DNA of 64,000 nt from TPA_inf: Saccharomyces (Eukaryota). Where the stretch lies: contig BK006939.2 of the NCBI GenBank assembly GCA_000146045.2, positions 512,001 to 576,000 on the forward strand, written 5' to 3'. The notes under the pieces were generated by a model. It was given only the letters and a program-made list of their open reading frames with translations. It was not told where the DNA came from and did no database searches. Position numbers and translations under genes: made by a program. This document shows positions 744 to 58,080 of this stretch, in pieces; positions within the stretch are counted from its first letter, which is position 1; each line of letters starts with the position of its first letter.

Positions 744-3700
744 ATGTCTGGAACTTTTCATGGCGATGGGCATGCTCCCATGTCGCCCTTTGAAGATACA
801 TTTCAATTTGAAGATAATAGCAGTAATGAAGATACACATATTGCACCTACCCATTTTGATGATGGTGCAACAAGCAACAAATACAGCCGGCCACAGGTCA
901 GCTTCAATGATGAAACACCCAAAAATAAACGTGAAGATGCAGAAGAATTCACATTTAACGATGACACAGAATATGACAATCATTCCTTTCAGCCAACACC
1001 GAAACTTAATAATGGATCTGGGACGTTTGATGATGTGGAATTAGACAATGATAGTGGTGAACCGCACACTAACTACGATGGTATGAAAAGATTCCGGATG
1101 GGTACAAAAAGGAATAAAAAAGGAAACCCAATAATGGGAAGATCTAAGACCTTGAAATGGGCTAGGAAGAACATTCCAAACCCATTTGAAGACTTTACGA
1201 AGGATGATATTGACCCTGGTGCCATAAATCGTGCGCAAGAACTAAGGACTGTGTATTACAATATGCCCTTACCAAAAGATATGATAGATGAAGAAGGCAA
1301 CCCCATTATGCAGTATCCTCGTAATAAAATCAGAACTACCAAATATACCCCGTTAACATTCTTACCAAAAAACATTCTATTTCAGTTTCATAATTTCGCC
1401 AACGTTTATTTCTTAGTTTTAATAATTTTAGGTGCATTTCAAATTTTTGGTGTCACGAACCCTGGTTTAAGTGCGGTTCCGTTAGTTGTCATTGTTATAA
1501 TCACTGCGATCAAGGATGCTATTGAAGACTCAAGAAGAACCGTCCTAGATTTAGAGGTGAATAATACCAAGACACATATTTTAGAAGGTGTTGAGAACGA
1601 AAATGTCTCAACCGATAATATTTCATTGTGGAGAAGGTTTAAGAAAGCAAACTCTAGACTCCTTTTCAAGTTTATACAATATTGTAAAGAACATTTAACT
1701 GAAGAGGGCAAAAAGAAGAGAATGCAGAGAAAGCGTCATGAACTAAGAGTACAAAAAACTGTTGGAACGAGTGGACCCAGATCCTCTCTAGACTCCATTG
1801 ACAGTTACAGAGTATCTGCAGATTATGGCCGTCCTTCATTGGATTATGATAATTTGGAACAAGGGGCCGGTGAAGCCAATATAGTTGATAGATCCCTACC
1901 ACCCAGAACTGATTGTAAATTTGCCAAGAATTATTGGAAAGGTGTCAAGGTTGGTGATATTGTTCGTATCCATAACAATGATGAAATCCCTGCTGACATT
2001 ATCTTACTTTCAACGTCGGATACAGATGGTGCCTGCTACGTAGAAACTAAAAATTTGGATGGTGAAACAAACTTAAAGGTACGCCAATCCTTGAAGTGTA
2101 CCAATACTATAAGAACGTCAAAAGATATTGCTAGAACAAAATTCTGGATCGAAAGTGAAGGGCCCCACTCAAATTTGTACACTTATCAAGGTAATATGAA
2201 ATGGAGAAATCTTGCAGATGGCGAGATACGAAATGAGCCAATTACTATTAATAACGTTCTGCTTCGTGGTTGCACTCTTAGAAATACTAAGTGGGCAATG
2301 GGTGTTGTAATGTTTACCGGTGGTGACACAAAAATCATGTTAAACTCTGGCATTACACCCACCAAGAAGTCCAGGATTTCAAGAGAACTAAACTTCTCTG
2401 TGGTGATAAATTTCGTGCTACTTTTCATCTTATGTTTTGTTTCTGGTATTGCAAATGGTGTATATTACGACAAAAAAGGCAGATCACGGTTTTCCTATGA
2501 ATTTGGAACAATTGCTGGGTCAGCGGCGACAAACGGTTTCGTCTCATTTTGGGTTGCTGTTATTCTTTACCAATCTTTAGTCCCAATCTCTTTGTACATT
2601 TCTGTGGAGATCATCAAAACTGCACAAGCGGCCTTCATTTACGGAGACGTTTTACTCTACAATGCCAAATTGGATTATCCTTGTACACCAAAATCCTGGA
2701 ATATTTCTGACGATTTAGGTCAAGTGGAATATATATTTTCTGATAAAACAGGTACATTAACTCAAAATGTAATGGAGTTTAAAAAATGTACTATCAATGG
2801 TGTTTCATATGGAAGAGCTTACACCGAAGCGTTAGCGGGATTAAGAAAAAGACAAGGTATCGACGTCGAAACCGAAGGTAGGCGTGAGAAGGCCGAAATT
2901 GCCAAGGATAGGGATACAATGATCGATGAACTGAGAGCTTTATCAGGAAATTCACAATTTTATCCCGAAGAAGTTACCTTTGTATCAAAGGAGTTCGTTC
3001 GCGATTTGAAAGGGGCTAGTGGTGAAGTACAACAAAGATGCTGTGAGCACTTTATGTTAGCATTAGCTTTATGTCACTCCGTCCTTGTAGAAGCAAACCC
3101 GGACAATCCAAAAAAACTGGATTTAAAAGCTCAATCTCCAGACGAAGCAGCGTTAGTAGCCACAGCTAGAGATGTAGGATTCAGTTTTGTTGGAAAAACC
3201 AAAAAAGGGTTGATAATTGAAATGCAAGGTATTCAAAAAGAATTTGAGATTCTAAATATTTTGGAGTTTAATTCATCGAGAAAAAGAATGTCCTGTATTG
3301 TCAAAATTCCGGGTCTGAACCCAGGGGACGAGCCTAGAGCACTTTTAATTTGTAAAGGTGCAGATTCCATTATATACTCAAGATTAAGTCGCCAGAGTGG
3401 TAGCAATAGTGAAGCTATTTTGGAAAAAACTGCTTTGCATTTAGAGCAGTACGCTACTGAAGGTTTAAGAACGTTATGCATAGCTCAAAGGGAGTTAAGT
3501 TGGTCTGAATACGAAAAATGGAACGAAAAGTACGATATTGCTGCTGCATCATTAGCAAACAGAGAGGATGAATTAGAAGTTGTTGCAGATTCCATTGAAC
3601 GCGAATTGATATTATTGGGCGGTACAGCTATCGAAGATCGTTTACAAGATGGTGTTCCGGATTGTATAGAGTTGCTTGCAGAGGCAGGAATTAAATTATG

Positions 3701-5459
3701 GGTTCTTACGGGTGATAAAGTTGAAACAGCTATAAACATTGGATTTTCTTGCAACCTTTTGAATAATGAAATGGAATTGTTAGTTATTAAAACAACTGGT
3801 GATGACGTGAAAGAATTCGGATCAGAACCAAGTGAAATTGTGGATGCTTTACTCTCCAAATACTTGAAGGAGTATTTCAACTTAACCGGTTCAGAAGAAG
3901 AGATTTTTGAAGCTAAAAAGGATCACGAATTTCCGAAGGGTAATTACGCCATCGTTATCGATGGTGATGCTTTGAAATTGGCGCTATATGGTGAAGATAT
4001 AAGAAGAAAGTTTCTTTTACTCTGCAAGAATTGTAGAGCTGTCTTATGCTGTAGAGTATCTCCATCTCAAAAAGCAGCCGTTGTTAAGTTAGTCAAGGAT
4101 TCTCTAGATGTCATGACACTAGCCATCGGCGATGGTTCCAACGACGTCGCCATGATTCAATCTGCGGATGTTGGTATTGGTATTGCCGGTGAAGAAGGTC
4201 GACAAGCTGTTATGTGCTCAGACTACGCCATTGGACAATTCAGATATTTGGCTAGATTGGTCCTCGTTCACGGTAGGTGGTCTTATAAGAGACTGGCAGA
4301 AATGATTCCTGAGTTTTTTTACAAAAACATGATTTTTGCTTTGGCATTGTTCTGGTATGGTATCTATAATGATTTTGATGGGTCTTACCTGTATGAATAC
4401 ACATACATGATGTTCTATAATTTGGCATTTACATCCCTACCAGTCATCTTCTTAGGTATTCTGGACCAGGACGTGAATGACACAATATCATTAGTGGTCC
4501 CTCAGTTATACCGTGTTGGAATTTTAAGGAAAGAATGGAACCAAAGAAAGTTCTTATGGTATATGTTGGACGGATTATATCAGTCTATTATCTGTTTTTT
4601 TTTCCCTTACTTGGTTTATCACAAAAATATGATAGTTACGAGCAATGGGTTAGGATTGGATCATCGTTATTTTGTCGGTGTTTATGTGACCACTATTGCT
4701 GTAATTTCGTGTAACACATATGTTTTATTACACCAATATAGATGGGATTGGTTTAGTGGATTATTCATTGCACTGTCTTGCCTCGTAGTTTTTGCATGGA
4801 CGGGAATATGGTCTTCTGCGATAGCTAGTAGAGAATTTTTCAAAGCTGCAGCGCGTATCTATGGAGCACCTTCATTTTGGGCTGTTTTCTTTGTTGCCGT
4901 GCTGTTCTGCTTACTGCCCCGTTTCACATATGACAGTTTTCAAAAATTTTTCTACCCAACTGATGTGGAAATAGTAAGAGAGATGTGGCAACATGGCCAT
5001 TTCGATCATTATCCTCCTGGTTACGATCCAACAGATCCCAACAGACCCAAGGTCACAAAAGCTGGGCAACACGGAGAGAAGATTATAGAAGGCATAGCAC
5101 TTTCCGACAACTTAGGAGGATCGAACTATTCAAGGGATAGTGTTGTCACAGAGGAGATTCCAATGACTTTCATGCACGGTGAAGATGGAAGTCCTAGCGG
5201 ATATCAGAAGCAAGAAACCTGGATGACTTCACCCAAGGAAACACAAGATCTTCTTCAATCGCCCCAATTTCAGCAGGCCCAAACGTTCGGAAGAGGCCCA
5301 TCAACCAACGTCAGGTCATCCTTGGACCGCACAAGAGAACAGATGATCGCCACTAACCAACTAGATAACCGCTACTCTGTGGAAAGAGCGAGAACATCTC
5401 TAGATCTACCAGGCGTAACTAACGCAGCCTCCTTAATCGGAACACAACAGAACAATTAA
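744..5459 (+). CDS. DNF1: P4-type ATPase, an aminophospholipid flippase, 1571 aa.
   Basis: Track ORF 735..5459 begins at TTG; the first ATG is at 744, giving MSGTFHGDGH. P-type ATPase motifs are present: DKTGTLT (FSDKTGTLTQN), TGDKVETAINIG and GDGSNDV. There are about 10 transmembrane segments. The length and the downstream BCK2 neighbour point to DNF1 rather than DNF2. Confidence 0.95.
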   Translation: MSGTFHGDGHAPMSPFEDTFQFEDNSSNEDTHIAPTHFDDGATSNKYSRPQVSFNDETPKNKREDAEEFTFNDDTEYDNHSFQPTPKLNNGSGTFDDVELDNDSGEPHTNYDGMKRFRMGTKRNKKGNPIMGRSKTLKWARKNIPNPFEDFTKDDIDPGAINRAQELRTVYYNMPLPKDMIDEEGNPIMQYPRNKIRTTKYTPLTFLPKNILFQFHNFANVYFLVLIILGAFQIFGVTNPGLSAVPLVVIVIITAIKDAIEDSRRTVLDLEVNNTKTHILEGVENENVSTDNISLWRRFKKANSRLLFKFIQYCKEHLTEEGKKKRMQRKRHELRVQKTVGTSGPRSSLDSIDSYRVSADYGRPSLDYDNLEQGAGEANIVDRSLPPRTDCKFAKNYWKGVKVGDIVRIHNNDEIPADIILLSTSDTDGACYVETKNLDGETNLKVRQSLKCTNTIRTSKDIARTKFWIESEGPHSNLYTYQGNMKWRNLADGEIRNEPITINNVLLRGCTLRNTKWAMGVVMFTGGDTKIMLNSGITPTKKSRISRELNFSVVINFVLLFILCFVSGIANGVYYDKKGRSRFSYEFGTIAGSAATNGFVSFWVAVILYQSLVPISLYISVEIIKTAQAAFIYGDVLLYNAKLDYPCTPKSWNISDDLGQVEYIFSDKTGTLTQNVMEFKKCTINGVSYGRAYTEALAGLRKRQGIDVETEGRREKAEIAKDRDTMIDELRALSGNSQFYPEEVTFVSKEFVRDLKGASGEVQQRCCEHFMLALALCHSVLVEANPDNPKKLDLKAQSPDEAALVATARDVGFSFVGKTKKGLIIEMQGIQKEFEILNILEFNSSRKRMSCIVKIPGLNPGDEPRALLICKGADSIIYSRLSRQSGSNSEAILEKTALHLEQYATEGLRTLCIAQRELSWSEYEKWNEKYDIAAASLANREDELEVVADSIERELILLGGTAIEDRLQDGVPDCIELLAEAGIKLWVLTGDKVETAINIGFSCNLLNNEMELLVIKTTGDDVKEFGSEPSEIVDALLSKYLKEYFNLTGSEEEIFEAKKDHEFPKGNYAIVIDGDALKLALYGEDIRRKFLLLCKNCRAVLCCRVSPSQKAAVVKLVKDSLDVMTLAIGDGSNDVAMIQSADVGIGIAGEEGRQAVMCSDYAIGQFRYLARLVLVHGRWSYKRLAEMIPEFFYKNMIFALALFWYGIYNDFDGSYLYEYTYMMFYNLAFTSLPVIFLGILDQDVNDTISLVVPQLYRVGILRKEWNQRKFLWYMLDGLYQSIICFFFPYLVYHKNMIVTSNGLGLDHRYFVGVYVTTIAVISCNTYVLLHQYRWDWFSGLFIALSCLVVFAWTGIWSSAIASREFFKAAARIYGAPSFWAVFFVAVLFCLLPRFTYDSFQKFFYPTDVEIVREMWQHGHFDHYPPGYDPTDPNRPKVTKAGQHGEKIIEGIALSDNLGGSNYSRDSVVTEEIPMTFMHGEDGSPSGYQKQETWMTSPKETQDLLQSPQFQQAQTFGRGPSTNVRSSLDRTREQMIATNQLDNRYSVERARTSLDLPGVTNAASLIGTQQNN

Positions 5460-6215: not shown

Positions 6216-8771
6216 ATGCCGAAGAATAGTCACCACCATCGTTCCAGTTCGGTTAATTCCACAAAGAGTCGTTCTACGGAATCTACGAATAAATGGAAAA
6301 TTCCGCACTATTATCGCAGATCCGCTAGCGGCAGCACACAAGCTTCGCCGGACAGGAACTCCTCAACAGGCTCATGTAGCACTCCAGTATTACCTACTAT
6401 GAATGTTATGTCTAGCCCGAAAAAAGTTTTGCTAGAGGATCCCAGAGACAACCATACTAAGGCGAAGAAGAGTAGTAGAAAGAAATCAGGTGAAATGGTC
6501 TTCGTCAATTATACTGTACAGGACACGGCTAACGAAAATGATACTGACTTGCAAACCCAGCCGGTTTCTGTGCCAGCACCAAAGGCGAAATTAAAGAAGA
6601 AATCCTCCAAAAGGAGAATGCTGAAGATATTTGGATCGTCAAAGAACGAACACATAGAGGACATCGTTGAAGAGCAACCAATGGTGCTTCAAATGGATTC
6701 AGAATCTAAACCCCTTTCGGGAACCCCTATCTCAGAAAGCGGAATCGACGCCTCGTCACTAACAACCAAAAGATCTTATAACTCGTTCTTAAAACACAAT
6801 AGGCTAAACGGTAAAACTCCGTTCTCTGGAAACTTGTCCTTTCCATCATTAAACATGATGGGTAACACTACTGATCTGCCTATTGACAATAACGATTTTT
6901 GTTCCGAGAAAGAAGTCGTTCCGAAATCAACTCATGATCCTTCACTAGCAAAACCGCCATCAAGGTTCACTGAAAGCGAAACAAATTCTACTCCCAACTT
7001 ATCAAGTATACCTCTCATGAACACAAAAAATACAAGATTGAAGTACAATAAAGTGGCGCCTCAGAGTTCAGACCGACAAAAGTCACAGGAAAGTGGGCTA
7101 TATCATTCTACCGAATCATTCAACTTCAAAGATCAAAACTACAGTAACAATAAATCCTCTTTAAGTCTGAACTCCGATTTAAGTACACCCCACTTTGCAA
7201 AGCATTCACCTGATTCACCAAGAACTTCAAGATCTTTCAACTGCGGAGACTCACAAAGTAAAGTTAAATTACCGGAAGAAAATGACGCTTCTATTGCATT
7301 TAGTAAGATGTTTACTAGAAAACGAGCCAACACTGGCGGGTCCACGTGTTCGCTAGCCTCACCCACTATTGCACAAACTATTCAGCAATCAAATATAAAA
7401 GTTAATAAATTGCCAACTCAGCGAACCACTTCAGTTGGCTCATTATCATCCATGTCAAATCGTTATTCACCAATAAGAGTTGCATCGCCAGGAAGAGCAA
7501 GATCCGCAACTCGTGGGTCTTCCCTTTATAGATTATCCAGAGACCTTAATTCTTTACCAAGCGTCACTGATCTACCAGAAATGGATAGTACAACCCCAGT
7601 TAACGAAATATTCTTGGATGGCCAACCACAGCATAAAAGTGGCAGTGTCAAAGGAGGGCATAGGAAGAAACAAGAATCTATCTCTGATGCTCAAAGAATT
7701 CAACATTCTAATTCGTACATTACAACACCTTCATCTTCTCTGGTGACTCCTCCTTACTACATGACAGGTTACACATTACCAAGTTCTGCATCTGCTTCTT
7801 CAACTCCAAATGTGCTTGAAACACACAATATGAACTTTGTTCCAAGTACCAGTACTGTTACAAGTTATCGCCCATCTAGCAATTTTTCCTCATTTGACAA
7901 AGAATACAGTAACGAAAACGACGCTAGTGGGGAATTCTCTGCTTTCAATACTCCAATGGAGAATATACCGGCACTAAAAGGTATACCTAGATCCACGTTA
8001 GAAGAAAATGAAGAAGAGGATGTCCTAGTACAAGATATTCCGAATACGGCACACTTCCAAAGAAGGGATATTATGGGGATGGATACTCACAGAAAGGATG
8101 ACAGTTTAGATTTTAACTCTTTGATGCCACACGGTAGTACAACTAGTAGCAGCATCGTAGATTCTGTTATGACGAACTCAATATCCACTACAACAAGCAA
8201 CGCGACCGGAAACTACTTTCAAGATCAAGATAAGTATACATTGGTAAATACGGGATTGGGATTGAGTGATGCAAACCTCGATCATTTTATTAGATCTCAA
8301 TGGAAACACGCTTCTCGATCAGAATCCAATAATAATACCGGAAATCGCGTTTCTTACAGTGGCTCAACACCAAACAATGTTGATACAACAAAGACTAATT
8401 TGCAAGTGTATACCGAGTTCGATTTTGAAAACCCAGAGTCGTTTTTCCATGAGCAATCGAAGCTACTAGGTGAGATGGGCCACAGCAATAACAACAGCAA
8501 CAGCGCCATCAACATGAATGAACCCAAGTCTGCGGATACATACATTGGAAATATATCTCCGGATACTTCAGCAACTGTTTCATTAGGCGACCTGATGGGC
8601 TCAAACGTTTCAAACAACAGTGAAAGAAATTTTTACGATGGTCATACTTTCGTTCCACAGTATCAGGCGAACTCATCTGTGGAAAACTCAAATAATCAAA
8701 ATGCAGCACCAATTGCAAATAACGACATTGATAATAATTTACAGTCTTTTTATTTTGATAATAGCAACTAA
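6216..8771 (+). CDS. BCK2: Ser/Thr/Asn-rich G1 progression regulator, 851 aa.
   Basis: ATG-initiated 851-aa ORF with extreme S/T/N low complexity. Its size and position between DNF1 and CCA1 fit BCK2. Confidence 0.88.
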   Translation: MPKNSHHHRSSSVNSTKSRSTESTNKWKIPHYYRRSASGSTQASPDRNSSTGSCSTPVLPTMNVMSSPKKVLLEDPRDNHTKAKKSSRKKSGEMVFVNYTVQDTANENDTDLQTQPVSVPAPKAKLKKKSSKRRMLKIFGSSKNEHIEDIVEEQPMVLQMDSESKPLSGTPISESGIDASSLTTKRSYNSFLKHNRLNGKTPFSGNLSFPSLNMMGNTTDLPIDNNDFCSEKEVVPKSTHDPSLAKPPSRFTESETNSTPNLSSIPLMNTKNTRLKYNKVAPQSSDRQKSQESGLYHSTESFNFKDQNYSNNKSSLSLNSDLSTPHFAKHSPDSPRTSRSFNCGDSQSKVKLPEENDASIAFSKMFTRKRANTGGSTCSLASPTIAQTIQQSNIKVNKLPTQRTTSVGSLSSMSNRYSPIRVASPGRARSATRGSSLYRLSRDLNSLPSVTDLPEMDSTTPVNEIFLDGQPQHKSGSVKGGHRKKQESISDAQRIQHSNSYITTPSSSLVTPPYYMTGYTLPSSASASSTPNVLETHNMNFVPSTSTVTSYRPSSNFSSFDKEYSNENDASGEFSAFNTPMENIPALKGIPRSTLEENEEEDVLVQDIPNTAHFQRRDIMGMDTHRKDDSLDFNSLMPHGSTTSSSIVDSVMTNSISTTTSNATGNYFQDQDKYTLVNTGLGLSDANLDHFIRSQWKHASRSESNNNTGNRVSYSGSTPNNVDTTKTNLQVYTEFDFENPESFFHEQSKLLGEMGHSNNNSNSAINMNEPKSADTYIGNISPDTSATVSLGDLMGSNVSNNSERNFYDGHTFVPQYQANSSVENSNNQNAAPIANNDIDNNLQSFYFDNSN

Positions 8772-9028
8772 AAAAGGAATGAAAAAAAAAAAAAAAAGTT
8801 CAAAAATAGTAACAGATATCTTTCGAAAAAGTTAAAAACTGGTAAAAAATTTTGAATAGAGTATATAAAAACTAATAAATATGTTTAGTTATCATACACC
8901 ATAGAATAACTACTAGAGATATTATTTCATTTTCGTTTTCATTTTTTTTATTTTTTTCTTTTCAATAAGGTAACAGAAAGTTATTTATGCATTCTTGTTC
9001 TACATGTCTTATGTATACTAATAAGCTA

Positions 9029-10669
9029 CTACAGGTATTTTGGTAGTATGGCTTTTAAATGAGTTATTAATTCTTGATCAGTCCCTGTAGGATTATCAAA
9101 CTGCCACCTAATCGCTTCGTTATTAATTTTACCCAGCCATGGACCTGGCTTCATTTGAAGTAGTTTTGCCATTTGTTTTCCGTCCACTATTGGTTTTAGT
9201 TCATGACAATTATTCAAATTATTGTCAAATATGTAAGAATAAAATTCATTGTAATTTTGGAAAAGTAATTCAATTTTTTTAGTTTCAAGCTTGGGAATCT
9301 TTAAAAATGCATCTGATAGAGATGCAAAATGTGCTGTTTCCCATTCGCCATTAAAGTTCCGTAGAAATATACCGATTTCGGATTTTTTTAGCTGGGAACG
9401 ATCTGCAAACTTAGCAAGTATTTCCTCATATGAACATATTGAATCTACGGTCTTGGCAATAACTGCTGCATCATTTTTACTCAGCTTCAATCCTTCCTTC
9501 ACAATGCTTTCTGTCACCGAAACCAGGTTGTTAATTTTCTTCTTTGGGTTCCCGATTATTTGTAAATTAGCCATGGGGGACAGGATCGCACTCAATATAA
9601 AATTTTGCTGAAATCCTGGCGAACGACCAATTTTTTCCCTTAAGATAGGAAGCTTCTCTAAAAACATTGGATATAATTCAATAAAACTTTTCAAGTGTGA
9701 GTTTAGTATGTTATCATTGTATACATGATTAATTTTGTCCATATCTTGACAATTCTCTTCGTTGAATTTTACGACGGAGCTATCATTATGCCAAAAAAAG
9801 ATAACATTTTCAAGATGAGCCCTTTGAATCAGCTGCAAAGCCAATAAAGGGGTTGGTCCTACTAATATTTTCTCCATCTCCACACCAACTCGCTCTCTAG
9901 AAATTTTTGAATTGAATGCAACATTAATCTGAGGATCGCCCATTTCAGCCATCACTTCCGGATCTATGGTAAAGTTGAATCTAGAAGCAAAACGGATCAA
10001 CCTCAAAACCCTCAAGGGATCATCCAAAAATGTTTGTTTTGCAGGAAGCGGAGTACGGAGAACGCCATCTTTTAGATCTTGCAGACCTCTCTTGGTGAAA
10101 TCTTCCACTTCACCTTTATGAATGTTATAGAAAAGAGCGTTCAATGTAGCATCCCTTCTTAAAGCGTCTTCCTCGGGTGTGCCAAAGCACACTTTAGGTA
10201 TCCTGGAAAGTTCAGTATACTTTTCAGATCTTAAATTGACAAAATCCACTTCAACGCCAAAGAGCTTAGTAGTGGCAGTTTCCAGATGCTTGGATTTCTC
10301 GGGATTCTTGTCAATCTTGTGGATATTATGAGGCTTGGCTCCATATTTGGCGTAATGTTGTTGCAAATACTCGTTCAAACCAGTAGCAAATTGCTCACCT
10401 GACATCACATTGATGGCAATATCCAAGTCGTGAGAACCTTGTCCCAGAAGCTTGTCACGCACCCATCCGCCCGTGATCCGAAGAGTCAATGGCTCAGGCT
10501 TATTGTGGTACTTTTGATTGTACAAGTCTGTATAATCGTTCAGCAAGTTACAGATGTTCTGTTCCACTTTGGTTAAGGTGATTTTGGGTGCATTTAGAAC
10601 AAAATTAGAATTCGTCATCGTTTTCTGAGCAGCACTATTCATCAGTAGAGATATAGTAGACCGTAGCAT
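9029..10669 (-). CDS. CCA1: tRNA nucleotidyltransferase (CCA-adding enzyme), 546 aa.
   Basis: The track ORF starts at GTG (10675); the first ATG is at 10669, giving MLRSTISLLMNSAAQKTMTNS. The GGWVRDKLLG...DLDIAI motif is the pol-beta-type nucleotidyltransferase signature. In-frame Met1, Met10 and Met18 are all present. Confidence 0.93.
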   Translation of the reverse strand: MLRSTISLLMNSAAQKTMTNSNFVLNAPKITLTKVEQNICNLLNDYTDLYNQKYHNKPEPLTLRITGGWVRDKLLGQGSHDLDIAINVMSGEQFATGLNEYLQQHYAKYGAKPHNIHKIDKNPEKSKHLETATTKLFGVEVDFVNLRSEKYTELSRIPKVCFGTPEEDALRRDATLNALFYNIHKGEVEDFTKRGLQDLKDGVLRTPLPAKQTFLDDPLRVLRLIRFASRFNFTIDPEVMAEMGDPQINVAFNSKISRERVGVEMEKILVGPTPLLALQLIQRAHLENVIFFWHNDSSVVKFNEENCQDMDKINHVYNDNILNSHLKSFIELYPMFLEKLPILREKIGRSPGFQQNFILSAILSPMANLQIIGNPKKKINNLVSVTESIVKEGLKLSKNDAAVIAKTVDSICSYEEILAKFADRSQLKKSEIGIFLRNFNGEWETAHFASLSDAFLKIPKLETKKIELLFQNYNEFYSYIFDNNLNNCHELKPIVDGKQMAKLLQMKPGPWLGKINNEAIRWQFDNPTGTDQELITHLKAILPKYL

Positions 10670-10815
10670 ACACAAAAAAAGCCCTTATAACCCACGGATA
10701 CGAATTAATCTCGAGGGAAGCGTTGCGATGTATTATGTAGTTTCCTTTAGTACATTGTTAATATGGTAGATTTTTGCGATTCATTTTTCAACTTTTCAAC
10801 CCTAACGAATGTTTT

Positions 10816-10849
10816 TTAGGGCTGAGTAACGACAAGAACACAACCCTAA
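10816..10849. promoter_or_regulatory. Inverted pair of Tbf1-type sites, TTAGGGCT (10816-10823) and AACCCTAA (10842-10849), in the CCA1/RPH1 divergent promoter.
   Basis: Both fit the ARCCCTAA consensus. The two arms TTTTTAGGG / CCCTAAAAA form a hairpin-capable inverted repeat with an 18-nt spacer. Confidence 0.35.
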
Positions 10850-10970
10850 AAATCAGATGACCTAAGGGTTTGGTGAATCGAGAAAGTATGCCCTATTTCC
10901 CCCGCCCATACACCCCATAAGCCTTAACCGCAGCCCTCCTCTCCCCTAAACGTTTCTTTTTCTTTTTCCA

Positions 10971-10986
10971 TTTTTTTTTTTTTTTT
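10971..10986 (+). repeat. T16 poly(dA:dT) tract in the CCA1/RPH1 divergent promoter.
   Basis: Read directly from the sequence. Such tracts are typical nucleosome-excluding promoter elements. Confidence 0.85.
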
Positions 10987-11332
10987 AGTTTTACTTTCTT
11001 TTTATTCGGAAAAATCTTTTCTATATTTTTCAAGGGTAACCTCATCGCCATGCAATTAATCACATAGACTCCTTAAGTAACAATGGCAAGGCGATAATTT
11101 TAAGAGAATTGCAGACGCTGTACATAGATCGTTATCAGCAAAACATATATTCGCATCGAAGGCGTTGCTTGTCCCTGAAGTAGCTACTTGCGGTTTTCAT
11201 CAAGCGGCCAATTTAATCATTCTATCAGCATTATTTTAAAATAGGGGGACTTAACCTTTCTATTAGTACCACTTATTTTATAGATCTGCTGGAGAAAAAT
11301 AAACAGATAAAAAAAAGGGAAAAAAAGAATAA

Positions 11333-53602: not shown

Positions 53603-54655
53603 ATGAATAGATCATACACAGACGACATGAATAGCAGCCCTCCAAATTACTTGACAACAAGGACGTTTAGAATCGTTAGATTGTTTGCAATAATTTTTGC
53701 ACTGCTTTTGGTAGCGTACTCATTATTTTTAAGCACACTTAGAACTGGAGCTATACCTGACCGCGCCAACACTGCTGCTCTAGTACGGCGAGCTAGGTGA
53801 TCATTTGCGACTGGATTAGGACTAGGAGGATTTTTAATTGCTGCAGCCGCTTATGCTACTCCTTACTGGGTCGCAGCAACCTGTATCGCATCCACTAGCG
53901 GAATATGTTCACCTATAGCTGGTGCTGTTTTAGCAACTTCAGCAGTTATAGTTGCAGCAGTTTTAGTGGGAAAGAGTTCTGGCTCAGCAACAAAGCGAGG
54001 GTTAAGTGAGACTATTAATGTACTGAATCATACTATAACACTCACTGATCATGTGCTCAATGGGCAAACATTGTCTAATGGTACTGGTAGTAATTTTGTT
54101 ACAATAGAGTTTAGTGGGTATGCAGTACATGACACTATTAAACGTGACGGTGCTGCTGAGATCAACTTTGTGGGGTATACTACGGAGCATGGAACCCACA
54201 TCAGCACGAGTAGCGTACATAATGTGAGCATGCTCATCGATCAAATCGTGGCAGCGGTACCAGGGGTACCTGATATAAGTGGCAACGCTTCGGCCCTATC
54301 GTTACAGAGACGCAGTCAAGAGTTCGCCACCTCATGGATATCAATGACATATAGTCAGAGTTATGGTGACCTGGCACAGAACTGGCAGAATGACGAAGGT
54401 GGAGCAGGAAATTTTGATTCTTATGCTGAAGAGAAGTTACAGAATTTCTTTTCAGGTAATAGGGATTGGAAATACTGCTTTGCTGCTGAGGACACGAAAA
54501 ACGGTGAGCCACTTGATTACGATGACATACCTGGTGACGGTGCAGGCACGGGTTCGGCATTCAAGTCTGAGATATATTTTAACACTTACGGTGGTATAGA
54601 TAATTATTGTAATGACGAGCATATCGGTGCTCAGAACACTGGAGATGGTCGATAA
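53603..54655 (+). pseudogene. KHS1: KHS1-type chromosomal killer-toxin reading frame. It spans 350 codons in one frame, interrupted by a single in-frame TGA at 53798-53800. The 141-codon YER187W ORF is the C-terminal part starting at the internal ATG at 54230.
   Basis: ATG at 53603 opens a hydrophobic N-terminus (MNRSYTDDMNSSPPNYLTTRTFRIVRLFAIIFALLLVAYSLFLSTL) typical of a secreted toxin precursor, then stops after 65 codons. The same frame reopens immediately and has no further stop until 54655; I translated 53801-53965 by hand and found it open. A TATA box lies at 53525-53532. Confidence 0.65.
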
Positions 54656-54689
54656 AGCTTTACGCCTGTCGCTGAATTGACTGACCCGA

Positions 54690-54950
54690 AATTAAGAACT
54701 GTTGACGTAGTGAATTACGATCTAGTTTATATGTCATAATGTAGTAAGTTTATTGGACCCTTCTATATGTTATGTAAATGTAATAATTACATAGTTACTG
54801 CTTTTGTACATAGAAACTATAGTTTCTTAAGTACTACCGGATTAGAGGTTTGCTACTATATGTTTTCCTTGTCTCAAGCATTACTGAAACAACTCTGAAA
54901 CAATACTAAAACATTACTCATATCATGCTTTTGGGTTACCACATTCAACA
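54690..54950 (-). mobile_element. Solo LTR of about 261 bp with TGTTG...CAACA termini, most consistent with Ty5 (omega). Copy 1.
   Basis: It begins TGTTGACGTAGTGAATTACG and ends GGGTTACCACATTCAACA. It aligns over essentially its full length with the inverted copy at 56791..57024. Confidence 0.55.
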
Positions 54951-56039
54951 ATAACTCGAATACATTTATAAAAAAAACAAAACTAAGGTACAAAACACAC
55001 ACCACACCACATACGCGCTGATTGGTTTTATGGAAGCTAATAGTTCAGACATAGCTCAGAAAAATAATAATAAGTATTATCAAATATAACTCATCTGGTT
55101 ACATGCTAAGTTCTTGTCAAGTGATATAGCGTTATCTTTATTATTGAATTAAATTCTATAATTAGAATTCGACTACACCAACTAATGACTCTAAAAAATA
55201 TGTGATTGCCCTTCAAGATTGCATTATTTCTCAATGCATTACATACATAGAGTATACTAGATACAGATAGATGATTGTAAGTGTTGGAACAAGATTCAAT
55301 TATCATCCTATTTATTGCGATAGACGCACTACTTGAGAGTGATATACTTACTTATGCTACTGCATTCAAAGAGTACCACTAAACAATCTCAACAGAATCA
55401 ATCAGACTTTTTTTTGCCACAAAAACTTTTAACGATGTCCTTTGGCAGTACTGTATTTTGAGATTAAAGGCGTTCAGTCAATAAAAAATCTAAATTCTTG
55501 TTCATTTTCAGTTCTGGTATTTTTTTCATATTAATGATGGGGTGGCTCTGGAGGCTCATTTTTCCCACTGAAGATCGCTGGTAATTTCGTTCGTATGTTT
55601 TAAAGAGAACTATATCCTGTCGCCAATTATGTGCAGTTGATGAGAAAACTAAGATAGAAATAAGTAGGGATGGAACCAGGATCCACAAGAAGCGCGTTTA
55701 GCCGATCCGGCTTATCAGGTACGAGAAGCAGTATTATTAAGTAAGAAAGCGCGCAGGAAAGCGGCCTTTTGAAAGCACGTCTGCAGACATCTCACGACAC
55801 ATTCCCAAATAGGGCCCTGCTAAAAAAAAAGCAGCAGAGCGTACGTTGCCTGGGAAGCATGGTTTAGCGTGTTGCTATATTATGGTAAGGGGGGTGGTCA
55901 GTATACGTTGTGCTGACTGCCAGAGAATATCCTTATTCACAATTATTTGTTGAGTTTGATACTTATTTACAGAGACTATATATAATGACACTTTTGGAAT
56001 ACAGTATCGCTACTCAATATCATAAAAAAAGTAACAATA

Positions 56040-56759
56040 ATGATGCCTACCTACCTAGGAAAGTTAACGTGGTCATACTTTTTTACCACTTTAGGACTAG
56101 CTTGTGCTTACAACGTAACAGAACAAATGGAATTTGATCAGTTCAAATCAGATTACCTTGCCTGTCTCGCACCAGAACACAGAAACATTGTAGTCGATTT
56201 GGCTAGTAATGGATTCATAACAATTTCACCGATGGCGAATGCAACAATTGACTTTGAGGATGTAACTAGTGATTATTTTAACTGCACTGACGTCAATACT
56301 AACGTACAGGTTACGATCGCGTCATTTTACAATGAATACGGTTTTGGGCCCGATGATAACGGCTATTATCACGCTATGGAAGAACCCTCAGAATTTGAAC
56401 GGCATGACATGGATGTTAGGCTCTACAGACCATACTATCCAGGTGAGTTTGTCATGGGAAGACGTTCAGATGCACTTGGAGTGACTGGTTTTGACCAAAA
56501 GGACTGCGCAGGTGAGGGTTTTTACGACGAACAAACTGCAGCAACGTCATGTCAAAATATAGGCTCCACTCAGTACGCCAAGTCGGTCAGGTCTTATAAC
56601 TATGGATGCTGCGGCGGGGCGGTCTGGATCAGGATTTGGCCGCATCACAATTGTTCAAAAGGTCATGATCACCATTTCAAGATAAGGCCAGGCCAGATGC
56701 TATGCTGGAATGTCAACCCATATTCTTGGATGCAACCAGAATCCGGATGGAATCCGTAA
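56040..56759 (+). CDS. YER188W: Uncharacterised secreted-type protein, 239 aa. It has an N-terminal signal-like segment and is Cys-rich with several N-glycosylation sequons.
   Basis: ATG at 56040. The hydrophobic N-terminus reads MMPTYLGKLTWSYFFTTLGLACA. There are about 14 Cys including a CC pair, and NVT/NAT/NCT/NCS sequons. A TATA-like element lies about 65 nt upstream. Confidence 0.7.
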   Translation: MMPTYLGKLTWSYFFTTLGLACAYNVTEQMEFDQFKSDYLACLAPEHRNIVVDLASNGFITISPMANATIDFEDVTSDYFNCTDVNTNVQVTIASFYNEYGFGPDDNGYYHAMEEPSEFERHDMDVRLYRPYYPGEFVMGRRSDALGVTGFDQKDCAGEGFYDEQTAATSCQNIGSTQYAKSVRSYNYGCCGGAVWIRIWPHHNCSKGHDHHFKIRPGQMLCWNVNPYSWMQPESGWNP

Positions 56760-56790
56760 CGAATAGGATTCTGGACATACGTTAGGTTCT

Positions 56791-57024
56791 TGTCGAATGT
56801 GATAACCCAAAAGCATGGTACAAGTGATGCTTCTTTTTTGTGTCGGTAATACACAAGGAGAACATATAGTGATAAACCTCTAACCCACTATTACTTAAGA
56901 AACCCTAGTTTCTATGCACAAAAGTAGAACCCTATATATCTTATATTTGTATTACATATATAAATGTCCAGTAAACTTACCACATTATGACATATAAGCT
57001 AGATCGTAATTCACTACGTCAAAA
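56791..57024 (+). mobile_element. Solo LTR, Ty5-like, copy 2. It is inverted relative to copy 1, with mutated termini.
   Basis: It starts TGTCGAATGTGATAACCCAAAAGC (one mismatch to TGTTG) and ends CACTACGTCAAAA. It aligns in reverse complement to 54690..54950, with long near-identical blocks. Confidence 0.55.
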
Positions 57025-57559
57025 TTACATTATGGGAGTGAAAGTATAATGGAGCACCCGTGTGAGTATGTGCTTGTTGACGTTAACGAGGATGAACAAA
57101 CGACAAATAGATTCGACGTATTGAAGTACTTCTTGGCCACTTTTCATCTTCTGACGCGGTGAGCTTTTAAGAGCCCTTCTTTTTCGACTGGCCACGTGAG
57201 AAGACATACAGTTCAGCTTACATAGCTTTGGCCCATACAATACCTATGTGCCCCAAACCGCAGAGACGATTAGCACACCTTTTTACCTGCACCACAGTCA
57301 TTTCTCGATAATGGTGAAAACACAGTGATACCACCGCACAGCAAAGGTGCTGCCAATGGACTTGAAATATTTTATGGAGTGCGAATAAAAAAATGCTCAT
57401 GGACTCGAATATGAGATGCAAAGCCACCCTGTGCAAAATGGTTATCCTTGTGGGAGAGTGTTACGACAGTGATGTGGCATATTATTCTAATGTATGGTCT
57501 GTGTAAGTACGAAATATTCTGAAATGGCATCCGTTCAAGCAATGGTAATATTAAGGAAC

Positions 57560-58080
57560 TTATACGTTAATGACGTCATGGTGGTATTGATACGTAATTG
57601 AGTGTGTTTATGTATTATCGTTGAAGGATAGAATATTTTTATGTTTAGGTGATTTTAGTGGTGATTTTTTTGTAATATTGACATAAGTGTATATAAATTG
57701 AGTGGATAGTAGATGGTGAAAAAGTGGTATAACGTATGTATTAAGGGCAGTTATACAATATTTGGGGCCGCCGAATGAGATATAGATATTAAAATGTGGA
57801 TAATCGTGGGCTTTATGGGTAAATGGCACAGGGTATAAACCGCTGAGGCAAGTGCCGTGCATAATGATGTGAGTGCATTTGTACTGATTTAGTGAGAGAT
57901 GGGCCATGGAGTGGAATGTGAGAGTAGGGTAAGTTTGAGAGTGGTATACTGTAGTAGCATCCGTGTGCGTATGCCATATCAGTATACAAGTGAGGGTGAG
58001 TATGGCATGTGGTGGTGGGATTGGAGTGGTAGGGTAAGCACGTGTGTATTATTTACGATCATTTGTTAACGTTTCAATAT
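57560..58080. repeat. Subtelomeric X-element core (boundaries approximate).
   Basis: Characteristic X-core sequence, including the ARS consensus match TTTTATGTTTA at 57637-57647 and the conserved ...TATTATTTACGATCATTTGTTAACGTTTCAATATGGTGG end. The track ORF 57608..57907 (-) lies inside it. Confidence 0.55.
57637..57647 (+). promoter_or_regulatory. ARS consensus sequence (WTTTAYRTTTW) of the X-core replication origin.
   Basis: Exact 11/11 match TTTTATGTTTA inside the X core. Confidence 0.4.

Follow-up and report, generated by a model that had tools for sequence, protein, structure and literature searches.

Two related repeats flank YER188W in opposite orientations near the right end of Saccharomyces cerevisiae chromosome V, raising the question of whether the pair records a rearrangement of the enclosed segment or two insertions that happen to face one another. 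A preliminary description of the locus had favored the former, proposing that two inverted Ty5-like solo LTRs pointed to past inversion or capture of the segment holding YER188W and could promote its further inversion. The locus was examined within a window, the whole 64,000-nucleotide stretch of DNA that was analyzed (contig BK006939.2, positions 512,001 to 576,000 of the forward strand), and in alleles from other strains. Very probably, these repeats are two independent, dead Ty5 insertions, each reduced to a solo LTR, and their opposite orientation is no footprint of a rearrangement; an inverted LTR pair is not, by itself, evidence of one.

Identity and setting of the inverted repeats

The following features were assigned in the window.

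54700 to 54950, minus strand: copy 1, a Ty5 solo LTR of 251 bp (chrV_s144), assigned by similarity to Ty5-1 and by the published sequence
54951 to 56790, plus strand: enclosed segment of 1,840 bp containing an upstream region and the YER188W ORF, assigned by the ORF list and strain colinearity
56791 to 57024, plus strand: copy 2, a Ty5 solo LTR of 234 bp (YERWomega2, chrV_s145), assigned by similarity to Ty5 and by the published sequence
57637 to 57647, plus strand: a match to the ARS consensus (ACS), TTTTATGTTTA, in the subtelomeric X core, detected by a regex scan

A repeat search of the window detected three adjoining inverted-repeat blocks, spanning 54691 to 54955 and 56786 to 57033, that were 78 to 84% complementary. 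Gapped global alignment of the reverse complement of 54700 to 54950 with 56791 to 57024 gave 196 matches in 253 columns (84.5% over ungapped columns), and the local score of 222 far exceeded that of 500 shuffles (19.5 ± 2.7; maximum, 34), indicating that the inverted homology originally described for 54690 to 54950 and 56791 to 57024 is real. The true start of copy 1 is 54700, the earlier boundary of 54690 having taken in 10 bp of flank. A block quoted in the preliminary description holds a near-palindrome inside the LTR, AGAAACTATAGTTTCT, but the homology between the copies covers the entire LTR and is independent of this block. No further copies of the repeat were detected within the 64-kb window by sensitive BLAST and an nhmmer profile.

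Both repeats are, as judged by sequence, Ty5 solo LTRs, as had been suspected, and both aligned over their full lengths with the LTRs of Ty5-1 (YCLWTy5-1), the full-length element on chromosome III. Copy 1 has the 251-bp length reported for Ty5 LTRs (PMC7175516) and, like Ty5-1, intact TGTTG...CAACA termini. It matched the 5′ LTR of Ty5-1 at 238 of 251 positions without gaps (94.8%) and the 3′ LTR at 230 of 251 (92%), with a uniform 94 to 96% identity to Ty5-1 in each 50-nt bin, and was identical to the published s144 sequence. Copy 2 differs from the Ty5-1 LTR by ∼17 bp of net deletions, by mutated termini (TGTCG...CAAAA, with the one substitution at either end that had been pointed out) and by the lack of a detectable duplication. 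It remained alignable end to end at 80 to 84%, matching the 5′ LTR at 194 of 232 ungapped columns (83.6%) and the 3′ LTR at 80.2%. Its identity to all other Ty5 LTRs was just 77 to 84%, and its sequence agreed with the published s145. By 50-nt bin, its identity to Ty5-1 was 68 to 82% in bins 1 to 4 and 92% in the last (3′) bin, which is conserved throughout the Ty5 family. Unlike full-length Ty5-1, neither copy is associated with internal Ty5 sequence: no more LTRs were present in the window, the only adjoining long ORFs were YER187W and YER188W, and no reverse-transcriptase or integrase domains were detected in these two ORFs.

The enclosed segment is as initially outlined, ∼1.8 kb in which YER188W (56040 to 56759, plus strand, 239 amino acids) is the sole long ORF. 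A homologue search detected homologues of YER188W in S. cerevisiae alone, and the only Pfam match for the segment was a subthreshold one to Crystall_3.

Distal to the pair lie the X core, with homology common to other chromosome ends, and telomere-like repeats. The distance to the ACS match at 57637 is 613 bp for copy 2 and 2,687 bp for copy 1, and both copies are like Ty5-1 in occupying a subtelomeric site near an X-core ARS. These distances (613 bp and 2.7 kb) bear out the suggestion that the location suits the preference of Ty5 for silent subtelomeric chromatin. As the Ty5 integrase binds Sir4, thereby directing integration into silent chromatin at telomeres and the HM loci (PMC5911963, PMC7175516, PMC4700185), the position of the pair would fit Sir4-directed targeting, silencing of the chromatin being presumed from position.

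The LTR pair is already published and annotated and is an ordinary, known feature. In a reannotation of all S288C Ty elements (Carr, Bensasson & Bergman 2012, PLoS One 7:e50978; PMC3511429), chrV_s144-_TY5 was placed at chrV 566695 to 566945 on the minus strand, without an SGD name, and chrV_s145+_TY5 at chrV 568786 to 569017 on the plus strand, with the SGD name YERWomega2 (PMC3511429, File S2). The offset between the window and sacCer2 chrV coordinates is 511,995, and the two sequences and their relative coordinates are the same as those described here. The two were described as "adjacent... on different strands" solo LTRs, both polymorphic among SGRP strains, with s144 scored as present in 10 of 18 scorable strains (PMC3511429). 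There was no mention of YERWomega2 or YERComega1 in the main texts of the literature searched. The pair illustrates, in textbook fashion, how Ty5 is targeted to silent subtelomeric chromatin; it matters little beyond bookkeeping. What the present analysis adds to PMC3511429 is the empty site of copy 1 together with its 5-bp duplication, ruling out the proposed inversion or capture, and the orientation of the enclosed segment.

The insertion site of copy 1

Strain alleles of the interval were gathered by means of exact and near-exact YER187W and YER188W proteins; the sample, therefore, rests on protein identity to S288C-like alleles and is biased towards similar haplotypes. Three alleles lacked copy 1, namely L009 (strain AQG, GCA_029990535.1), L028 (a Logan assembly) and L029 (AWRI1631). 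In all three, the junction read GAAATTA-ATAAC-TCGAATAC (with longer left context, GACCCGAAATTA-ATAAC-TCGAATAC), such that the target was single and the present-day flanks of copy 1 were contiguous. Copy 1 was also absent from L031, a more distant relative with ∼86% identity over YER187W, where a single ATAAC again joined contiguous flanks (GACCCGAAGAA-ATAAC-TTGTATA). The LTR-bearing alleles all read GAAATTA-AGAAC followed by the LTR, and the G of AGAAC was present in 22 of 22 LTR-bearing loci; this G is a derived substitution. The two copies of the target-site duplication are as follows.

54695 to 54699, no strand: left copy of the duplication, AGAAC, which departs from the target ATAAC by a single substitution
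54951 to 54955, no strand: right copy of the duplication, ATAAC, identified by comparison with the empty alleles

A match of four of five positions or better is expected by chance in ∼1.9% of cases. Because the alleles without copy 1 have a single ATAAC and contiguous flanks, copy 1 is a simple insertion, a plain integration flanked by a 5-bp duplication of its own (AGAAC/ATAAC).

Copy 2 and exchange at the chromosome end

A search for target-site duplications at each copy was successful for copy 1 but not for copy 2, whose flanks, GTTCT and TTACA, match at only two of five positions and form no recognizable duplication. With a decay of 16 to 20% per copy, 15 to 23% of true duplications are expected to retain two or fewer matches, and the missing duplication of copy 2 is for this reason not diagnostic. 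No empty allele for copy 2 was detected among the retrieved strain loci or in a gapped-pattern scan of metagenome contigs. Several candidates for such an allele were rejected. In L009 and L011, the chromosome end has been replaced, the breakpoints lying within YER188W (at window 56486 and 56635, respectively); L004, which seemed to stop at the very edge of copy 2, is not a natural chromosome but an engineered one, bearing loxP/loxPsym sites and a synthetic telomere cap; and L036, the lone match of the gapped-pattern scan for an unoccupied site, was a chance match to an unrelated marine contig.

The right subtelomere of chromosome V exists as two deeply diverged haplotypes that recombine frequently, and copy 2 is found on both. 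The L032 allele has a B-type inner segment and a copy 2 identical to that of the window (221/221); its enclosed segment is 99.6% identical to that of L009, with B-type single-nucleotide polymorphisms through 56423 and a delta LTR at 55021, as in L009. Copy 2 was also found in YPS128, K11 and DBVPG6040. Copy 2 may be a very old simple insertion. It would be older than copy 1 if judged by its divergence from the Ty5 family, which could equally reflect a different source subfamily.

Natural exchange points were located at window 56486, 56635, ∼57075 and 57452, mostly off the LTR edges, the last two being distal switch points in DBVPG6040 and L010, respectively. The L014 allele (GCA_949123545.1) is a three-part mosaic. 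Its left flank is that of the empty-site haplotype, the two being 100% identical as far as the marker at 54672; the stretch made up of both LTRs and the segment between them is 99.5 to 100% identical to the window; and from 57022 the allele continues into homologous distal sequence with ∼20% divergence. Its switches thus fall no more than 28 bp from the outer edge of copy 1 and within 3 bp of the outer edge of copy 2. The left switch may reflect crossing over, resolved beside the heterology, between one haplotype with the LTR and one without it. The overall pattern is an unexplained coincidence and was not taken as evidence for LTR-driven rearrangement, although these switch points hint that LTR edges may be favored exchange endpoints.

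An alternative for copy 2 alone is that it is the recombination junction of two Ty5 elements, for example from different chromosome ends, in which case the sequence distal to 57024 would derive from another subtelomere; such an origin is compatible with copy 1 being a simple insertion. Most endogenous Ty5 copies reportedly lack duplications and mark the boundaries of subtelomeric rearrangements, and Ty5 × Ty5 recombination is said to have been proposed for most of them. Copy 2 likewise shows no target-site duplication, and the diverged distal sequence of L014 begins within the last 3 bp of the LTR. Against this, the expected decay of true duplications accounts for the mismatched flanks often enough, the other distal switch points are scattered, and no second locus with a copy-2-like LTR was found, the closest other Ty5 LTR being 84% identical. 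On balance, a junction origin of copy 2 is unlikely, and the fuller version, in which copy 2 is an ancient Ty5 × Ty5 junction of YER188W unique sequence with an X-proximal module and LTR edges are preferred exchange endpoints, is decidedly unlikely.

Orientation and origin of the enclosed segment

If recombination between the two LTRs had inverted the YER188W segment, the pair would be the scar of that inversion. The flank order on the plus strand (AGAAC, copy 1, ATAAC ... GTTCT, copy 2, TTACA) lends some appeal to this explanation, as AGAAC, to the left of copy 1, and GTTCT, to the left of copy 2, are exact reverse complements, an exchange of flanks that LTR × LTR inversion would yield, and copy 2 has no duplication of its own. 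Reciprocal exchange of the duplications was, however, not found, the second pair of flanks being mismatched (ATAAC versus the reverse complement of TTACA), and the AGAAC-GTTCT match is coincidental because it depends on the derived G, which is confined to LTR-bearing alleles. This match was, therefore, rejected as an inversion signature in view of the empty alleles, in which the present-day flanks of copy 1 are joined through one ATAAC. All 16 of the distinct natural assemblies with both LTRs were colinear with the window, with the enclosed segment on the plus strand. The orientation was also the same in alleles lacking copy 1 (window 55021 to 56486 corresponds to positions 8981 to 10444 of the L009 locus, and likewise for L029), in the L031 homologue of window 55013 to 55181 and in every other strain, so that the comparison of strain synteny that had been proposed yielded no inverted segment. 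Chimeric LTRs would also be expected after an inversion, but neither LTR is chimeric, as no signature with a crossover point was detected in the 50-nt-bin mismatch profiles of copy 1 or copy 2. An inversion is, consequently, highly improbable.

A capture or transduction event, in which the YER188W segment and the LTRs arrived together as one composite, LTR-bounded unit, could be read into two of the alleles. L031 lacks YER188W, its X core following the homologue of window 55181 after only ∼390 bp, and in L014 the two LTRs and everything between them are nearly identical to the window while both outer flanks are 11 to 20% diverged. YER188W and its upstream region are nevertheless present, in a diverged B-type form, in L009 and L029 despite the absence of copy 1, and the segment was therefore not imported by the LTR pair. 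Moreover, the whole block has no flanking duplication (AGAAC versus TTACA), and the left limit of the missing segment in L031 (∼55181) lies 230 bp inside the position of copy 1, off the LTR edge. No Ty5 reverse-transcription route to an inverted-LTR unit is known, which also counts against capture, and this origin has an exceedingly small likelihood. Inversion or capture of the segment, as claimed from the pair, is, hence, refuted as far as copy 1 is concerned and lacks support overall. The pair could also be imagined to derive from an inverted segmental duplication of one LTR-containing stretch rather than from two integrations, as the arms of the inverted repeat reach 5 to 9 bp past the LTR termini. 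This extension is, however, accounted for by a four-of-five coincidence in the flanks, the homology itself ending at the LTR ends, and the unequal similarity of the copies to Ty5-1 (95% versus 80 to 84%) is incompatible with a duplication younger than the still-polymorphic insertion of copy 1; this explanation has almost no chance of being correct.

The favored explanation of two independent insertions would involve two separate Ty5 integrations into silent subtelomeric chromatin at the right end of chromosome V in S. cerevisiae, and the large difference between the copies in divergence from the Ty5 family was counted in favor of independent origins, as were the even, non-chimeric mismatch profiles of the two LTRs. 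The 5′ and 3′ LTRs of each element would then have recombined with one another, leaving a solo LTR in each case, as expected from established retrotransposon biology. Copy 1 is of the full-length Ty5-1 lineage; its ATAAC target lay a short way downstream of YER187W, on one of the two deep haplotypes, and the insertion is still polymorphic. Copy 2, which is far more diverged, lies shortly downstream of YER188W, at a distance of ∼600 bp from the X-core ARS, and is carried on both haplotypes. The inverted orientation would be an even-odds outcome of two independent integrations.

The case for further inversion promoted by the pair is also weak. Homeologous recombination is strongly suppressed in yeast at the 16 to 23% divergence observed between copies 1 and 2, whose longest common exact block is 24 bp; for these reasons a future inversion between the copies is unlikely, and the 16 assemblies are all colinear. 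In yeast, inverted Ty1 elements or delta LTRs are known to cause inversions and fragile sites (PMC7175516), and the present pair is similar in consisting of two inverted LTR sequences on one arm. In those cases, the repeats are long or near-identical and close together (PMC7175516), whereas the Ty5 repeats are short (234 to 251 bp), diverged and 1.84 kb apart, and no inverted allele of this pair was found among the strains compared.

Two other apparent irregularities of the interval were examined. A direct repeat between 55094 to 55128 and 56770 to 56804, which spans the left junction of copy 2, was considered as a third, degenerate LTR but was ruled out as a chance seed, as no further LTR homology was present there and L031 carries the same stretch as ordinary conserved sequence. 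An intra-LTR rearrangement was similarly rejected as the source of ∼2 kb of additional columns in the s144 alignment of SGRP strains; most of these columns lie beyond window 55020, where a Ty1 delta is present in strains of the B haplotype.

Two haplotypes around the copy 1 site

Comparison of the interval among S. cerevisiae assemblies detected two haplotypes, differing by 5 to 12% over window ~53700-56430 (loci L009 from strain AQG, L028 from a Logan assembly, L029 from AWRI1631, L032 and L014). The diverged interval covers YER187W, the site of the Ty5 solo LTR termed copy 1 and the 5′ half of YER188W, and is flanked on either side by near-identical sequence. Mosaics of both haplotypes were observed in several strains, including those represented by loci L013 and L014. 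This deep split could be due to ancient polymorphism or to introgression. The features concerned are as follows.

Features of the interval (window coordinates)
53603-54655, + strand: YER187W, a 350-codon DUF5341 ORF with one in-frame stop at codon 66
54806-54834 (copy 1) and 56895-56923 (copy 2): internal near-palindrome of the Ty5 LTR
55020/55021: position of a Ty1/Ty2 delta solo LTR in the diverged (B) haplotype (L009 8661-8981; L029 829-1149; L032 1-97)
56040-56759, + strand: YER188W

In L014 (GCA_949123545.1), the haplotype switches were located at locus positions ~8615-8660 and ~10975-11000, corresponding to window 54672-54699 and 57022, and each lies close to the outer edge of one LTR (within 28 bp for copy 1 and within 3 bp for copy 2). 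The LTR-YER188W-LTR block of this strain is entirely S288C-like while neither of its flanks is S288C-like.

The delta solo LTR of the B haplotype lies ~70 bp away from the empty Ty5 site, indicating that a Ty1-family insertion adjoins a Ty5 target, distant from all tRNA genes. At the same position, 55020/55021, some strains in the SGRP alignment of copy 1 (Carr et al. 2012, PMC3511429) contain ~2 kb of additional sequence.

Alleles of YER187W and YER188W

The codon 66 context of YER187W reads RRAR*SFATG in the window versus RRARWSFATG elsewhere, and a full-length, uninterrupted 350-aa ORF was detected in P0007, L009 and other strains. As the window carries the in-frame stop and the 350-aa ORF is intact elsewhere, the annotated 141-aa YER187W protein is the tail of a nonsense allele.

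Homologues of YER188W were found in S. cerevisiae only, in five clusters. At its N-terminus the protein resembles a signal peptide, its C-terminus is rich in Cys, and the sole Pfam match was a sub-threshold one to the beta/gamma-crystallin family Crystall_3 (E = 0.008). Natural subtelomere replacements cut the gene at window 56486 in L009 and L029, where the remainder is joined to an ORF with a Sir1 domain, and in L011 at window 56635.

The LTRs in engineered and distant chromosomes

Locus L004 (GCA_033956085.1; features at 8661-8911 and 10752-11140) derives from an engineered, Sc2.0-style chromosome V, in which natural sequence ends exactly at window 56790. Copy 2 and all distal sequence give way there to loxP/loxPsym sites, part of an X core and a synthetic telomere cap. 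Copy 1 was kept with 100% identity. The name field for copy 1 is "n.a." in File S2 of Carr et al. (PMC3511429), and its retention is consistent with this LTR having lacked an SGD name at the time of chromosome design.

A more distant Saccharomyces-like relative, L031 (ENA ERZ922844 contig, 2589-4258), has a YER187W homologue followed by a homologue of window 55013-55181, ~390 bp and an X core with an ACS; YER188W and the copy 2 flank are absent from this contig segment. The X core is interrupted by a Ty5 LTR with 86% identity to the Ty5-1 5′ LTR, after which lies an IMD-like gene fragment.

The near-palindrome is perfect in copy 1 (AGAAACTATAGTTTCT), its copy 2 counterpart being AGAAACCCTAGTTTCT. 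This is the block quoted in the preliminary description as near-identical between the copies, and it matches itself in both orientations.
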